Source: Patescibacteria group bacterium (GTDB taxonomy: Bacteria; Patescibacteriota; Saccharimonadia; CAILAD01; JADZBC01). Taken from it: a DNA stretch of 64,000 nt. The position numbers and the translations under genes are program-made. The stretch is taken from assembly GCA_052034495.1 (NCBI GenBank), contig JBPOIL010000012.1, positions 13,644 to 77,643 of the forward strand, given 5' to 3'. A model generated the notes under the pieces. It ran no database searches. It saw only the letters and a list, made by a program, of their open reading frames with translations, and had not been told where the DNA came from. Shown here piece after piece: positions 2-19,728 of this stretch. Position 1 is the first letter of the stretch. Each line of letters opens with the position of its first letter.

Positions 2-2233
2 ACCTTTGGCACCATGGCGGCGCGTAACGCAGTGCGTGATACAGGGCGAGTCTTGGGCATGACGTACGCCGAAGTTGATGCTATCGCCAAGCTCATCCCA
101 GCGCCTGTTCAGGGTAGGCATATCCCACTGGCTAAGTCGATTATTGACGATCAGGATCTGTCGCGCGAATACAATTCCAATCCACGAGCTAAGAACGTGA
201 TCGATGTGGCGATGCAGCTAGAGGGTACGATTCGCAATACTGGTACACATGCTGCCGGTGTAGTAATCGCCCCCGAAGCGCTCGTAGAACGCGTGCCCTT
301 GACCAGGGCGTCTAAGGGCGGTATTGCAACTCAGTATGCCATGGGTCCGGTAGAGGAGCTCGGACTCCTTAAATTCGACTTCTTGGGCTTGTCGAACCTC
401 ACGATCATCAAGAACACCCTTCGTATTATGCGCAGGGTGTACGACGTAGAGATCGATCCCTCCGAGATCCCGCTCGACGATAAAAAAACGTACGAGCTGC
501 TCGCGCATGGGGATACCACCGGGGTATTCCAGTTAGAGTCTTCCGGTATGAAGCGCTACCTGCGCGAGCTCAAGCCCGACCGGTTCGACGACATAATTGC
601 CATGTGTGCATTGTACCGACCAGGTCCGCTCTCTGCGGGGCTGACCGATAGCTTTGTGCGCCGCAAAAACGGGCTCGAAGATGTTACCTACGATCATCCA
701 TCGATGGAGCCGTCGCTCAAGACGACGTATGGCGTGCTCGTCTACCAAGAGCAAGTTATGCAATTCTCTAAAGACGTATGTGGCTTTACGGGTGGCGAGG
801 CCGATACCTTGCGTAAGGCGATTGGTAAGAAGAACATTGAGACGATGACCAAGATGAAGAAGTCGTTCATAGCGGGCGGAGTCTCGCATTCCAAGGTTCC
901 GCAGGATATCATGGAGCGATTCTGGGATCATTTGCTCGGGTTCGCAGATTACTGTTTCAACAAGTCCCACTCGGCCTGTTATGGTTTGATCGCCGTGCAG
1001 ACAGCTTATTTGAAGGCGCACTACCCCGCAGCCTTCATGGCCGCACTTATGACGAGTGACTACGGCAACTTAGACCGGATCGCAATCGAGGTGACGGAGT
1101 GCCGCAAGATGGGCATGGAGCTCTTGCCCCCGGACGTAAATGAGAGCTTCTACGAGTTCGCAGTAGTACCCGGCACTGACAACATTCGGTTTGGCTTGGC
1201 GGCGGTGAAGAACGTAGGTTCTGGTCCGATCGAGGCCATTATTGCCGCGCGCGAAGAGGGCGGCCATTTCAAGTCGGTTGAGGACTTCGCAACGCGAGTT
1301 GAAGCTACCTATGTAAACCGCAAGACCATGGAGAGCCTTATTAAGGCCGGTGCATTTGACAGTATGGGTGACCGTGACACGCTGCTGGCCAACGTTGATA
1401 AAATTACTTCTTACGCAACTCGAGCACAGAAGAACGCCCTGTCTGGCCAGATCGATATATTTGGGTCCATAGGCATGCAGGACGAAATGCCGCCATTACA
1501 GTTTGACGCTCCTTCAACCAAGCCCGACGCCCGTCAACACCTGGTGTGGGAAAAGGAGCTCCTTGGCCTCTACATCTCCTCGCACCCACTCGATGAATAT
1601 GATAATTACCTATACGACCAGACTATGCCGCTCAATAAGCTTGATGCCAGTTTGGAGAACCGCTCGGTTCACATTGGTGGCATTATCACTACCTTCCGCA
1701 AAATCACGACCAAGACAGGATCGAGCATGGCGTTCGTGGGGGTTGAAAGCAAGGACGGGGAAGTAGAGCTGATCGTATTCCCACGCGCCTATGAGCAGTA
1801 TCAGGCAGTCTTGCACGTCGATGCGGTTGTGGAGCTCGAGGGGAAGGTAAGTACGAAAGACAGAGACGGTAAGACGGGCGGTGAGCTGAAGATCCTGATG
1901 GATAAAGTTAAGCCGATAGATATTGAAAAGGCGCGCAAGTGGCTGCCCAAGCCACGAAAAGAGAGCGTCGAGGACGTTGCCCCAATCGCTAGCCACGAAT
2001 TGTTTGTGCATCTGGACGACCTTAAGGACAGTACGCAGCTTATAGCCGTAAAGAAGATACTCGAAGACCACAAAGGTGTTTGCGCAAGCTATTTAGTCCT
2101 CGGTGGAGCGGAAAGGAAGATGATTAAGTTGCCCTACAAGGTTGCCATCAATGACGTCCTGACCAGCCACCTCAATGAGCTGCTCGGTTCGGAGCATATC
2201 GTGGTTAAAGAAAGTGCTGGAGCAATAAAATAA
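2..2233 (+). CDS. dnaE: DNA polymerase III alpha subunit, C-terminal portion; 5' end truncated by the window edge
   Basis: 739-aa ORF open to the window start; Pol III alpha motifs (FDFLGLSNLTII, YGLIAVQTAYLKAHYP) and a C-terminal OB-fold region. Confidence 0.9.
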   Translation, partial: TFGTMAARNAVRDTGRVLGMTYAEVDAIAKLIPAPVQGRHIPLAKSIIDDQDLSREYNSNPRAKNVIDVAMQLEGTIRNTGTHAAGVVIAPEALVERVPLTRASKGGIATQYAMGPVEELGLLKFDFLGLSNLTIIKNTLRIMRRVYDVEIDPSEIPLDDKKTYELLAHGDTTGVFQLESSGMKRYLRELKPDRFDDIIAMCALYRPGPLSAGLTDSFVRRKNGLEDVTYDHPSMEPSLKTTYGVLVYQEQVMQFSKDVCGFTGGEADTLRKAIGKKNIETMTKMKKSFIAGGVSHSKVPQDIMERFWDHLLGFADYCFNKSHSACYGLIAVQTAYLKAHYPAAFMAALMTSDYGNLDRIAIEVTECRKMGMELLPPDVNESFYEFAVVPGTDNIRFGLAAVKNVGSGPIEAIIAAREEGGHFKSVEDFATRVEATYVNRKTMESLIKAGAFDSMGDRDTLLANVDKITSYATRAQKNALSGQIDIFGSIGMQDEMPPLQFDAPSTKPDARQHLVWEKELLGLYISSHPLDEYDNYLYDQTMPLNKLDASLENRSVHIGGIITTFRKITTKTGSSMAFVGVESKDGEVELIVFPRAYEQYQAVLHVDAVVELEGKVSTKDRDGKTGGELKILMDKVKPIDIEKARKWLPKPRKESVEDVAPIASHELFVHLDDLKDSTQLIAVKKILEDHKGVCASYLVLGGAERKMIKLPYKVAINDVLTSHLNELLGSEHIVVKESAGAIK

Positions 2234-2234
2234 C

Positions 2235-2258
2235 AAAACCGCCCGGGTGGGCGGTTTG
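2235..2258 (+). terminator. Rho-independent terminator after dnaE
   Basis: aaaaCCGCCCgggtGGGCGGttt hairpin plus T-run directly after the dnaE stop. Confidence 0.7.
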
Positions 2259-2261
2259 TAG

Positions 2262-2860
2262 ATAATTCCTGTAGGGCGGCGGTGGGGTTGAGCCCACCGC
2301 CGGGACGATGCTTGGGTCCGCGTAAACCCAGGTCGACGTGCCGGTCGACAGAAGCCCTTGCGAGCTCCTCGGGGTACCAGTCTAGTCTCTGCAAAACTGC
2401 AGTGACTATCGTGGCAGCAATCGAGGCCTGGCGGGCCAGCGATTACTCTGCAAATACCGGCGATTTTGCCGGGGTCGAGTTCCATTCGAGGGTCTCAACA
2501 GGTGCCCCTGCAGATTCCAACGAACTTTACCCAGACAGAGCCTGCAGAGCTCCATCTCTAGTGATCGGCGCAGCCATGCTTAACGTCCGTTTATAAATGG
2601 CTGATCACTATGACTTTTTCTTCGGACACCCCGGCTTCCGGGGACTTCTACTTAGCGCGACCTGCGCCTTAATTACCGGTCGCTAGCTTCCTGTAGTAGA
2701 AGGTTGGGCTTTTCGGGATTGGGTGAGAACCCGCGGCTGCCAGCCGCTGGTTTACCCCGCTTCAGCAGGAACTTCAGCGGTGCGGCCGCACCTCCCTAGA
2801 CAAGCTTTTGAGTGAGGGGTATCGACTCCTCCGGTGCATTTCTCAGCTCCGTCGCGACTC
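2262..2860. other. GC-rich, highly structured non-coding island between dnaE and rplS (about 600 nt)
   Basis: No credible ORF in any frame (translations are Arg/Pro/Ser-rich junk). Many perfect hairpins, e.g. GGCGGTGGG-gttgag-CCCACCGCC, GGGTGAGAACCC, GCGGCTG/CAGCCGC and GGTGCGG-cc-GCACC. GC visibly higher than the flanking genes. Confidence 0.3.
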
Positions 2861-2965
2861 ATTCGCATGTCAGAAGCGTATAATATCATAGTATTGATAT
2901 AATGTCAATAGCATTATTGCATATCTATTGCCTAGGTGGCGATAATATGCTAGACTCATAAAGTT

Positions 2966-3589
2966 ATGAACGCTATAGAACTCGTAGAAAAGAAGAATTA
3001 TAAAGCTAAGGTCGCAGACGTACGCCCTGGTGATACCGTTCGCGTACACCAAATGATTCGTGAAGGCAACAAGCAACGCGTTCAGGTATTCGAAGGTGTC
3101 GTGATTCGCCGTAAGAGCATGAACGGCTTGCAGGCCAGCATTACCGTGCGCAAGATTGCATCTGGCGTTGGGGTAGAAAAGACTTGGTTCCTACACTCGC
3201 CAAACGTAGTGAAGATCGAAGTTATGCGACGTGCAAAAGTGCGCCGAGCCTTCCTGGGCTACATGCGTGGACTGCGCGGTAAGTCTGCTCGTATGGCTGA
3301 GCAAGAGTTCGACCGTGCTGCCGCAAACGAAGCTGACGCGCGCACTAATGCTCAGATTGCAGCCGAAGCAGAGGCTGAAGTTGCCGCTGCTGAAACTCCA
3401 GCAGAGAATGCGGGCGAAGACGTAATGCAGCAGGCAGACACCGTTTCGACCGAAGAAGTTGCCAAAGAAGAAGCCAAAGAAGCCAAGCAGGCTGATCCAG
3501 AAAAAGACGTTGCCGCTGCCAGCGACGAATCTGTTGCCGAAAAGGTAGAGGCTGAAGCCGGCGAAGCCAAAGCCGAGCCAAAAGCTTAA
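2966..3589 (+). CDS. rplS: 50S ribosomal protein L19 with a long Ala/Glu-rich C-terminal extension
   Basis: N-terminal ~115 aa match L19 ([28 protein letters not shown]...). Residues ~120-207 are a low-complexity AAEAEAE/KAE tail. Confidence 0.9.
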
Positions 3590-3605
3590 ACTCAGAACTC
3601 TAACT

Positions 3606-3634
3606 AAAAACCGCCCATATGCAGGGCGGTTTTT
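3606..3634 (+). terminator. Rho-independent terminator after rplS
   Basis: aaaaaCCGCCCatatgcaGGGCGGttttt. Confidence 0.75.
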
Positions 3635-3653
3635 AGTTTGCTATACTCCAACC

Positions 3654-4256
3654 ATGATTTGGGCGAGTTATGATTACGAGATTGCTGCGAGGGGGAAAGG
3701 CTTGAGGCTGATCTCTGGGGCTGACGAAGTTGGCCGCGGCTGTTTGGCCGGTCCTCTCGTGGTTGGGATGGTAGTTTTGCCGCAGGGCTGCCAGCTGCAA
3801 TTGGCAGACTCCAAGCTTTTGAGTGCCAAAAAGCGAACGGCGTTAGCAAGTCTTATAGAACGACAAGCTCTCGCTTGGTCCCTCGGTAAAGTAGAACATA
3901 CAGAGATTGATGAGCTGGGTCTAAGTGCTGCTATCAGGCTCGCCTACGAGCGAGCTCTTGATAGCCTTGGCATAAAGCCTGATAGACTCGTAATTGATGG
4001 CCCGCATAGAATAATCGACCATGACTTCGTGGAGCCAATTGTGAAGGCGGATCAAAAGATTGCTTGCGTGGCGGCCGCTTCAATCATTGCGAAAGTCGCT
4101 AGGGATGAGTGGATGCAGCAGCAATCTAAGCTGTACCCAGGTTACGGTTTTGCCACGAACGTAGGCTACGGTAGCCCCCAGCATTTGGCAGCGCTCAAAG
4201 AATACGGTCCTAGCGCCATTCATCGCAAGAGCTTCAAAGTGAAGAGCCATGGCTAA
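3654..4256 (+). CDS. rnhB: ribonuclease HII
   Basis: DEVGRGCLAGPLVV catalytic motif; conserved rplS-rnhB neighbourhood. Confidence 0.9.
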   Translation: MIWASYDYEIAARGKGLRLISGADEVGRGCLAGPLVVGMVVLPQGCQLQLADSKLLSAKKRTALASLIERQALAWSLGKVEHTEIDELGLSAAIRLAYERALDSLGIKPDRLVIDGPHRIIDHDFVEPIVKADQKIACVAAASIIAKVARDEWMQQQSKLYPGYGFATNVGYGSPQHLAALKEYGPSAIHRKSFKVKSHG

Positions 4257-4611
4257 GAATACCACCGCCATCGGGCTGCGGGCGGAGAAGATAGCCGCCG
4301 ACTATATGCGGGCCCAAGGCTACAAGCTCGTTGCCCGCAATGATCGTACCCGTTTTGCGGAGCTTGATTTGATTTTGGCTAATCGTGAGAATATTGTGTT
4401 TGTTGAAGTGAAGTATCGTGTGCACGCTGAATATGGCGGTGGGGCCGGTGCAATTACTGTTGATAAGCTGCGGCGCCTGCGAAACGCAGCAGAAGTTTGG
4501 CTGGCAGAACATCGGGGGTATGATTCCTTACAGCCAAGGGTTGATCTGGTCTCAATTCAAGGCGATCTAGAATCTCCCCAAGTTGAGCACATAGAGAACA
4601 TCACAGATTGA
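4249..4611 (+). CDS. yraN: YraN-family (UPF0102) endonuclease
   Basis: 120 aa, IVFVEVKYR motif; overlaps the rnhB stop, a typical rnhB-yraN pair. Confidence 0.75.
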   Translation: MAKNTTAIGLRAEKIAADYMRAQGYKLVARNDRTRFAELDLILANRENIVFVEVKYRVHAEYGGGAGAITVDKLRRLRNAAEVWLAEHRGYDSLQPRVDLVSIQGDLESPQVEHIENITD

Positions 4612-18937: not shown

Positions 18938-18986
18938 GCGGATGTGGTGGCCGCGTGAAACGTAAGTAGGCGTAGACACGCTAGCC
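18938..18986 (+). pseudogene. partial, degenerate duplicate of the tRNA-Leu 5' half
   Basis: GCGGATGTGGTGG (18938-18950) and AGACACGCTAGCC (18974-18986) are identical to the acceptor/D-stem and D/anticodon-stem segments of the intact tRNA-Leu 90 nt downstream. No anticodon or T arm. Confidence 0.5.
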
Positions 18987-19037
18987 AGGGCCGTCCGGTG
19001 AGACGCTTGGTTGAGAGGTAAGTTTACAATTTAATAT

Positions 19038-19123
19038 GCGGATGTGGTGGAATTGGTAGACACGCTAGCCTTAGGAGCTAGTGAGGTAACACTCGTGAAG
19101 GTTCGAGTCCTTTCATCCGCACC
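19038..19123 (+). tRNA. tRNA-Leu(TAG), type II, CCA encoded
   Basis: Manual fold: acceptor GCGGATG/CATCCGC, D-loop with GG, anticodon stem CTAGC/GCTAG, loop CTTAGGA, long variable arm, T-loop TTCGAGT, discriminator A plus CCA. Confidence 0.85.
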
Positions 19124-19126
19124 AAC

Positions 19127-19197: not shown

Positions 19198-19226
19198 TTG
19201 ACATTTTAACGCTTACGTGATATTAT
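19198..19226 (+). promoter_or_regulatory. sigma70-type promoter for the GC-rich small gene
   Basis: Near-consensus TTGACA, 17-nt spacer, TATTAT. Confidence 0.5.
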
Positions 19227-19303
19227 TTATCTAACCTGCGCACAAGGCAAAGGTTACCCCGACAGAGGTTGGGGATGAGTTGAGCCTAGGAGGCCAACCA
19301 GCC

Positions 19304-19636
19304 ATGCAAACCGAAGTGGCAAGAGAAGAGCAGCACCGTCCCCGCCTCGGAAGCAGCTACGACGCTTCCGCGGTCCCCGTGGGGCAGGTGATGCAGGTCA
19401 ACACCCGCAACTCCGCCTACTACTTCGTCTTCACCGATGAGCGGCGCATCAACCGCACCGACATCACCGGGGTCTCCGTGACCACGACGAACAAGGGCAT
19501 CGCGGTGGGTGCGCCCGCCAGCGTGCGGGTCGACCGGGTGATCCGTCGCGGGCAGTCGCTCCGCTTCGGCGCCGGTCGTGGGACCACGACTTCCGACGTC
19601 GTCTCGGTCTACGTGGCGGGTCGCCAGGTCGTCTGA
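19304..19636 (+). CDS. hypothetical small protein (110 aa) encoded in a high-GC island; start taken at ATG 19304 (ORF track begins at TTG 19280)
   Basis: AGGAGG RBS 10 nt upstream of the ATG; own promoter and terminator. GC content visibly far above the genome background; a frame-by-frame GC3 count has not been done. Confidence 0.5.
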   Translation: MQTEVAREEQHRPRLGSSYDASAVPVGQVMQVNTRNSAYYFVFTDERRINRTDITGVSVTTTNKGIAVGAPASVRVDRVIRRGQSLRFGAGRGTTTSDVVSVYVAGRQVV

Positions 19637-19702
19637 CCTGGTCCACCACAACTGCAGTCTTGAATGAGATCCAAGACAACATGCAGAGACCACCTTGATC
19701 TC

Positions 19703-19728
19703 GAGCCCCCACGTTATCGTGGGGGCTC
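19703..19728 (+). terminator. terminator hairpin after the GC-rich small gene
   Basis: GAGCCCCCacgttatcgtGGGGGCTC followed by an AT-rich stretch. Confidence 0.6.

Follow-up and report, generated by a model that had tools for sequence, protein, structure and literature searches.

A probable minus-strand gene for a large structured non-coding RNA in the dnaE-rplS spacer of a Saccharibacteria genome

The window analyzed here is a stretch of 64,000 nt, which its flanking genes assigned to the Saccharibacteria (Saccharimonadia). Between the stop codon of dnaE (2233) and the ATG of rplS (2966) lies a spacer of 732 nt that probably harbors an independent minus-strand gene encoding a structured non-coding RNA (ncRNA). 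Transcription would start at a sigma-70 promoter close to the consensus, with an extended −10 box and placed back-to-back with the rplS promoter, and would run toward dnaE to halt at a strong intrinsic terminator by the dnaE stop codon. The resulting RNA of ~645 nt is predicted to fold into ~25 helices linked by short, strictly conserved single strands. Of three origins suggested in the original prediction (a decayed foreign gene remnant, an unrecognised ncRNA or a cis element for rplS), the ncRNA is favored: helices covary, the sequence is under purifying selection, and the minus strand provides it with its own promoter and terminator. Those two signals were found together with compensatory changes among four sequences and with no conserved reading frame.

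Composition and folding of the spacer

The region 2262-2860 had been described as non-coding, richer in GC than its surroundings and full of perfect inverted repeats, and this description was borne out. No credible ORF was present in the dnaE-rplS spacer. The GC content of 2262-2860 was 58.1%, compared with a mean of 49.5% for the window and 53% for the flanking genes dnaE and rplS, which corresponds to the 99.6th percentile of all 599-nt windows of the stretch (sd 2.7%). Perfect inverted repeats were located at 2277-2286/2293-2302 and 2728-2739/2741-2752, and the quoted repeats GGGTGAGAACCC (2721-2732) and GGTGCGGCCGCACC (inside 2776-2790) were also recovered. Folding energies of the spacer had z-scores of −6.7 and −6.9 on the two strands (0 of 20 dinucleotide shuffles were as good), with a fold ~40 kcal/mol better than that of the shuffles on either strand. 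Given the GC percentile, the presence of the repeats and folding energies far below those of shuffled sequences, the observation is real and a chance effect is excluded. The feature itself extends over ~2228-2908, slightly wider than first noted, because the promoter (2908..2880) and the terminator (2257..2236) sit outside 2262-2860.

Transcription signals and the neighboring genes

The region had been thought to lack evident transcription signals of its own; a promoter and a terminator were found when the minus strand was read (Table 1). The promoter, TTGACA-17-TGaTATTAT, matched the sigma-70 consensus at 11 of 12 positions plus the TG in a consensus scan, and its 17-nt spacer varied in the homologues while both boxes were invariant. 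A transcript start at ~2871-2874 was inferred from the position of the −10 box, and the 3′ end was placed in the U-tract past the terminator. Read on the plus strand, the terminator hairpin is followed only by a poor T-run (TTTGT), so that it appears mainly to serve the minus-strand RNA. The relatives keep the terminator hairpin (helix 26) with another stem sequence (CUACCA/UGGUAG) and a U-run.

The predicted RNA is convergent with dnaE, where it ends at the stop codon, and divergent from rplS. The −35 boxes of the RNA gene and of rplS are only 19 bp apart. All relatives conserve the rplS promoter, whose −10 box stands 9 nt ahead of the ATG. As this promoter lies downstream of the element, the element stands outside the rplS transcript; it is not located between the rplS promoter and start codon on the rplS strand, as a 5′ leader or cis-regulator would be. 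Relatives devoid of the element keep the same promoter, and the suggested cis element for rplS thus gained no support. We also noted that rplS itself (window 2928-2968) appears to be leaderless, with the −10 box of its promoter 9 nt before the ATG and no Shine-Dalgarno (SD) sequence.

A broader cis-acting arrangement, in which an antisense unit insulates or tunes its neighbors and the RNA product itself is unimportant, is improbable. The terminator would then serve dnaE, and the divergent promoter would compete with the rplS promoter or activate it via supercoiling. The 19-bp distance between the −35 boxes and the terminator abutting the dnaE stop codon are consistent with this reading, as is the antisense orientation common to all cassette families found in the relatives (see below). 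Yet insulation needs no RNA of 650 nt with covarying helices, invariant junctions and purifying selection. Moreover, the relatives without the element retain not only the rplS promoter but also the gene order, and the predicted transcript does not reach into rplS and shares no more than a few nt with dnaE.

Homologues, conservation and covariation

For comparison, the loci of ~17 related lineages were collected via their L19 proteins. Besides the window species, the element occupied the same dnaE-rplS site in three lineages, namely (i) L002 (the same as L067); (ii) L068 (the same as L070 and L071), from which the element of L069 differs by 1 nt; and (iii) L073. The closest relatives were empty at this site. 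The resulting family, termed A, comprises four distinct sequences, three of them substantially different, all from one genus. In all seven contigs of the window species (7/7), the element was 100% identical over the portion that each contig covers.

The four-fold synonymous sites in dnaE, rplS, rnhB and nusA were saturated, with only 29-43% identity between the window and L002. The element displayed ~79% column identity in the same comparison, which indicates that its nucleotide sequence is under purifying selection. The longest block identical between the two copies measured 45 nt, and about a dozen shorter strands were invariant.

RNAalifold predicted 180 pairs in 26 helices for the four sequences. 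In the plain MAFFT alignment, 91.5% of the pair cells held standard pairs, compared with 37-47% when the partners were slid by 1-3 columns. Compensatory double changes were found for 38 of the 180 pairs, compared with 3-9 after sliding and 17.6 ± 3.2 after shuffling (none of 500 shuffles reached 38); these counts were made on the same four-sequence alignment that gave the predicted structure, which limits the statistics. The most strongly conserved helices never vary and hence give no covariation. Overall, promoter, terminator and some 25 helices are retained in the homologues. When read on the minus strand, the alignment contained 75 G-U cells and 18 A-C cells, and this excess of G-U over A-C, together with the promoter and the terminator, fixes the minus strand as the putative functional strand.

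Anatomy of the predicted RNA

The predicted RNA starts with a 5′ leader of ~70-95 nt, in which the invariant UGCGAAUGAG is accompanied by two or three hairpins. An invariant junction, ACUCAAAAGCUUGUCUAGGGAGGU, connects this leader to a long three-part helix (helices 6-8). The 45-nt block overlaps this helix; its 30-nt core (2776-2805) is invariant in all four members, and the block includes the 14-nt palindrome GGUGCGGCCGCACC as well as an SD-like GGGAGGUG. Since the reading frame of the block differs between the window and L002, its conservation is not due to coding. The palindrome lies within the invariant outer stems of the long helix, whose internal loop GAAGU/GGUAA appears to resemble a loop-E/sarcin-ricin motif.

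According to the model, a long-range helix (helix 5) may close the body of the RNA. Every one of its pairs is invariant, so that it lacks support from covariation. After the long helix, ~12 hairpins with covarying stems follow, several of which are capped by GNRA or UUCG tetraloops. They are separated by the invariant single strands AUCCCGA, AAAAAGUC, GAACUCGACCCC, AUUUGCAG and CCGCCCUACAG; the conserved AAAAAGUC (2612-2619) precedes helix 12. Helix 25 is lengthened by an insertion in the relatives.

Table 1 Features of the putative RNA gene, its neighborhood and related units (window positions unless a locus is named)
Feature	Position	Strand	Basis or remark
−35 hexamer TTGACA of the RNA gene promoter	2903..2908	−	invariant in 4/4 family members
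Extended −10 box, TGaTATTAT	2880..2888	−	invariant in homologues
Predicted transcript, ~645 nt	2228..2874	−	promoter and terminator positions, alignment, covariation, G-U vs A-C count
Intrinsic terminator, 9-bp G+C-rich stem (2257-2236) followed by UGUUAUUUUA	2227..2257	−	consensus scan
rplS promoter TTGCCT-17-TAGACT (context, outside the element)	2928..2956	+	consensus and conservation only
Invariant 5′ leader motif UGCGAAUGAG	2858..2867	−	alignment
Block CACUCAAAAGCUUGUCUAGGGAGGUGCGGCCGCACCGCUGAAGUU, 45 nt identical between window and L002	2770..2814	−	alignment
Long three-part helix (helices 6-8)	2733..2789	−	outer stems invariant, tip covaries
Predicted long-range closing helix, 5′ strand GCUUGUCUAGGG	2794..2805	−	RNAalifold; pairs with 2268-2276
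Predicted closing helix, 3′ strand CCCUACAGC	2268..2276	−	overlaps invariant CCGCCCUACAG (2269-2279)
Long hairpin, helix 10	2645..2702	−	3/8 pairs changed on both sides
Long hairpin, helix 12	2557..2612	−	6/10 pairs changed on both sides
Invariant junction strand GAACUCGACCCC	2471..2482	−	alignment
Hairpin, helices 20-21	2376..2415	−	base invariant, tip covaries; helix 21, 4/9 pairs double-changed
Hairpin, helix 22, with invariant GCAA (GNRA) tetraloop	2350..2369	−	stem covaries
Two neighboring hairpins, helices 23 and 24	2313..2349	−	helix 23 loop CGGCAC conserved
G+C-rich hairpin GGCGGUGGG/CCCACCGCC, helix 25	2277..2302	−	5/16 pairs double-changed
ORF-less antisense units, rplS-rnhB	L002:4640-5348, L004:4645-5267, L056:2600-3198, L064:3040-3822, six more	−	
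Further ORF-less antisense units, rplS-rnhB	L001:1650-2185, L001:1171-1615	−	

Distribution and origin of the cassette

In the other relatives, dnaE and rplS were separated by just 50-90 nt or by a different insert. In a distance matrix of dnaE, the window grouped with L064 (90-91% nt identity) and next with L006; L002, L068 and L073 formed a separate clade, with dnaE ~75% identical to that of the window. Both L064 and L006 are devoid of the element and have a homologous 80-nt spacer in common, and the flanks in the window resemble L064 right up to the junctions of the element. Because its two closest relatives share this empty spacer, the element is most likely an accessory cassette that was gained horizontally and recombined into the dnaE-rplS spacer. 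The simplest history would be a gain in the lineage of the window with replacement of ~45 nt of the spacer; two identical precise losses would be a less likely alternative.

Sequence divergence was also observed further along the locus. Between L048:3689-4643, from the same species, and window 3654-4611, RNase HII was only 85.5% and YraN 79% identical at the protein level; elsewhere the two contigs are identical in the RNA element, in L19 and over the part of NusA that was aligned, and DnaE is 99.9% identical. This rnhB/yraN stretch resembles a tract acquired by recombination with a diverged relative; since it is diverged amid identical sequence, recombination with diverged relatives appears to occur at the locus. 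The dnaE-rplS junction is variable elsewhere as well: a minus-strand murB was found at L055:1527-2417, an ORF of 416 aa at L010:2669-3916 and different genes at L007:1731-4000.

The patchy distribution and the inferred horizontal gain would also be expected of a mobile element, of which the RNA might be a non-coding part or relic, e.g. an ORF-less group II-like intron, another ribozyme, or a guide or template RNA whose protein partner has been lost or separated from it. The size fits that of ORF-less group II introns, copies of the L002 type carry GUGCG near the 5′ end, and the predicted fold is a ring of hairpins with a long-range closing helix. We nevertheless regard such an origin as quite unlikely. 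Rfam 15 gave no match at E ≤ 10 to group I or II introns, ribozymes, omega-RNA/HEARO or retrons, the window copy has AUGCG instead of GUGCG, and a domain-V-like hairpin was not recognised by eye. The element is intergenic, outside any host gene, with its own promoter and terminator, and no gene for a reverse transcriptase, transposase or nuclease lies next to it. Terminal repeats were absent, no target duplication was seen in comparison with the empty sites, and only a single copy exists within the 64 kb; a transposon or MITE was discarded on these grounds.

Searches of collections of mobile DNA gave no homologue. The blastn 'distant' searches of phage and plasmid collections returned no match. 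Exact patterns of three conserved blocks were run against viral contigs; two gave no match and the third gave a chance match inside a phage coding region (L074). Likewise, an exact-pattern scan of metagenomes with CTCAAAAGNNNNNNCTAGGGAGGTG yielded a single chance match (L046) with no similarity. In a search for targets of the RNA, the longest complementarity of the invariant blocks to the rest of the window was 10 nt, which is at chance level, and no target emerged.

Coding potential

A protein-coding origin found no support. Substitutions were spread evenly over the three codon positions (82/78/81), showing no periodicity, and 26 of 30 indels had lengths not divisible by 3. Stop-free stretches were longest at non-homologous places in different members, and no ORF was conserved across the family members in any of the six frames. 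The longest frames had no Pfam family at E ≤ 0.1 (the lone match, to UBA_8, had a chance-level E = 0.24), and for the longest frame no homologue was found among 5.8 billion proteins.

Two further explanations bear on these results. The first, a small-protein mRNA whose untranslated regions are long and structured, is very improbable. Elsewhere in the window (19198-19728), a small ORF is under a strong promoter and terminator of this kind, and the RNA contains the SD-like GGGAGGUG. Yet no start codon follows this motif at a usable distance, and across the 45-nt block the first AUG- or GUG-initiated frame differs between the window and L002; the missing periodicity and the lack of a conserved ORF in six frames argue against it, too. 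The second, a decayed foreign protein-coding gene, would account for a GC content above that of the surroundings and for the absence from the nearest relatives, but deserves hardly any credence: besides the even codon positions, frame-breaking indels and lack of Pfam or protein matches, a neutral remnant would not remain alignable where synonymous sites are saturated, nor would its helices be preserved by compensatory changes and its promoter and terminator stay intact and conserved.

Searches for known RNA families

No known RNA family was matched. Rfam 15 was searched with the spacer at E ≤ 1 and at E ≤ 10 (661 nt, lax filters), with the whole window at the gathering score and with eight relatives' loci at E ≤ 0.1; only terminator look-alikes, namely the rnk leader and RNAI, were reported. 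ARAGORN detected no tRNA or tmRNA in the region. These results led us to reject several candidates: (i) tmRNA, for which both ARAGORN in the region and Rfam were negative; (ii) SRP RNA and 6S RNA, without a covariance-model match in Rfam 15; (iii) group I introns, without an Rfam match and with no gene interrupted; (iv) group II introns, without an Rfam match and with AUGCG in the window as opposed to the 5′ GUGYG, the element being intergenic with its own promoter and terminator; and (v) ROOL, GOLLD, OLE, raiA and HEARO, none of whose models matched at E ≤ 10.

RNase P RNA was rejected as well, since no model (bacterial A and B, archaeal) matched at the gathering score or at E ≤ 10. Like RNase P RNA, the element is G+C-rich with many helices, and its GGUGCGG...GCACC hairpin is vaguely reminiscent of the P12 region; this weak resemblance, pointed out in the original prediction, gained no support from the covariance models. 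An A-rich strand with AAAAAGUC is vaguely like GAGGAAAGUCC of P4, but compared with RNase P these look-alike motifs come in the opposite order. In addition, the element is absent from the dnaE-rplS locus in L064, L006 and ~12 other relatives; if the RNA were essential and tied to one locus, the closest relatives would have kept it.

Comparison with known large RNAs

Large (>500 nt) structured ncRNAs are rare in bacteria, comprising OLE, GOLLD, ROOL and a handful more. Each of those known is biochemically unusual, as exemplified by the recently solved RNA-only cages. OLE RNA acts in trans as a ribonucleoprotein, and its loci contain the partner genes oleA, oleB and oleC. OLE (~610 nt, from extremophiles of the Firmicutes) and the element are similar in length, and both are long, highly structured and strongly conserved. 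In contrast to OLE, the element is adjacent to dnaE and rplS and not to any oleA/oleB/oleC-like gene, its lineage is a different one and its distribution is much narrower.

Saccharibacteria are ultra-small epibionts with streamlined genomes. In such a genome, 700 nt of non-coding DNA would be costly, which implies a function worth paying for.

ROOL RNA averages 581 nt (Weinberg et al. 2017, PMC5737381), and ROOL and GOLLD, which rank among the large 'ornate' bacterial ncRNAs, belong to the same size class as the element. They, too, stand alone as genes and form numerous hairpins and multistem junctions (predicted in the case of the element), with a sporadic accessory distribution and signs of horizontal movement (PMC5737381; cryo-EM, PMC12286853). 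ROOL and GOLLD occur in Firmicutes and in rumen or lake samples, whereas the element occurs in Saccharibacteria. Unlike them, it has no adjacent tRNA, no recognisable prophage and no match in the phage and viral collections searched. Because no covariance model of ROOL, GOLLD or OLE matched, the predicted RNA is not assigned to any of these families but to a new, previously undescribed one. In the searchable literature, no account of large ncRNAs from Saccharibacteria or Patescibacteria was found; Weinberg et al. 2017 (PMC5737381) list only a small lysM-TM7 motif.

By analogy to OLE, ROOL and GOLLD, the RNA may function in trans, a suggestion that we advance tentatively. It would be strongly transcribed and would act as an abundant folded particle, composed of RNA and protein or of RNA only, and not as a regulator of its neighbors. 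Its conserved junctions, the invariant long helix and the palindrome GGUGCGGCCGCACC could provide surfaces for binding, tertiary contacts or self-association.

Further RNA cassettes in the same operon

The rplS-rnhB spacers of relatives contained ORF-less inserts of 450-1700 nt, each made up of one to three units. These units, of 450-750 nt each, come from the same genus, are present or absent between close relatives and follow one design: a near-consensus minus-strand promoter (TTGACA-17-TGnTAnnAT) beside the downstream gene and a minus-strand terminator at the end of the upstream gene. They sort into three more sequence families, B (10 sequences), C and D. Compensatory changes were detected for 42 of 82 predicted pairs in family B and for 11 pairs in family D, which is strongly conserved. 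None of the three had an Rfam match in the relatives' loci.

Except for the terminators, families B, C and D displayed no sequence or profile similarity to the window element. The nhmmer profiles and a covariance model of R1, the most conserved 5′ domain of the window element, matched only the four members of family A. The string GCUUGnCUAGGGA is common to the window element and some members of family B; being partly inside a covarying stem of the latter, it is probably shared by chance. Within its 64 kb, the window contains family A only, and both the window and L006 are without B, C or D at rplS-rnhB. A terminator hairpin in the rplS-rnhB spacer of the window (3600-3642) resembles the terminator of family B (nhmmer E = 2.6 × 10−5) and may be a remnant of, or a landing site for, a B cassette. 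Furthermore, L001:3208-3915 and L003:5201-5897 represent a homologous gap of ~700 nt between yraN and nusA with no consistent ORF, where the window has 113 nt.

The occurrence in one operon of several unrelated cassettes of the same design, which differ between close relatives, suggests an accessory 'RNA gene pool' that has gone unrecognised. Such a pool would comprise four or more unrelated families of cassettes that encode RNA only, each with a strong antisense promoter, an ornate RNA of 450-750 nt and a terminator; they would be gained, lost and swapped by recombination as interchangeable large functional RNAs, a reading that we consider rather doubtful. If true, the intergenic sites of the core dnaE-rplS-rnhB-yraN-nusA operon would serve as swap sites in a Saccharibacteria genus with genomes of ~1 Mb, and the pool might supply self-assembling RNA particles or RNA-based factors for defence or host interaction. 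The cassettes are compact targets for structure determination and for genetics in transformable Saccharibacteria. The immediate impact is limited, as family A is narrow and known from one genus so far.

Other observations in the window

A cassette at window 19198-19728 has a TTGACA-17-TGaTATTAT promoter driving an orphan ORF of 110 aa (19304-19636). With 67% GC, this ORF is the most G+C-rich spot noted in the window. It has an SD sequence and is followed by a terminator hairpin of 11 bp. No Pfam family was found for it, and only two homologues exist among the 5.8 billion proteins. Beside this cassette, at 18938-19124, a partial tRNA-Leu-like copy lies just upstream of tRNA-Leu(TAG) (19038-19124), and the two have GCGGATGTGGTGG and GTAGACACGCTAGCC in common. 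The copy may represent a scar left by integration, or else a tRNA gene that is degraded or interrupted.
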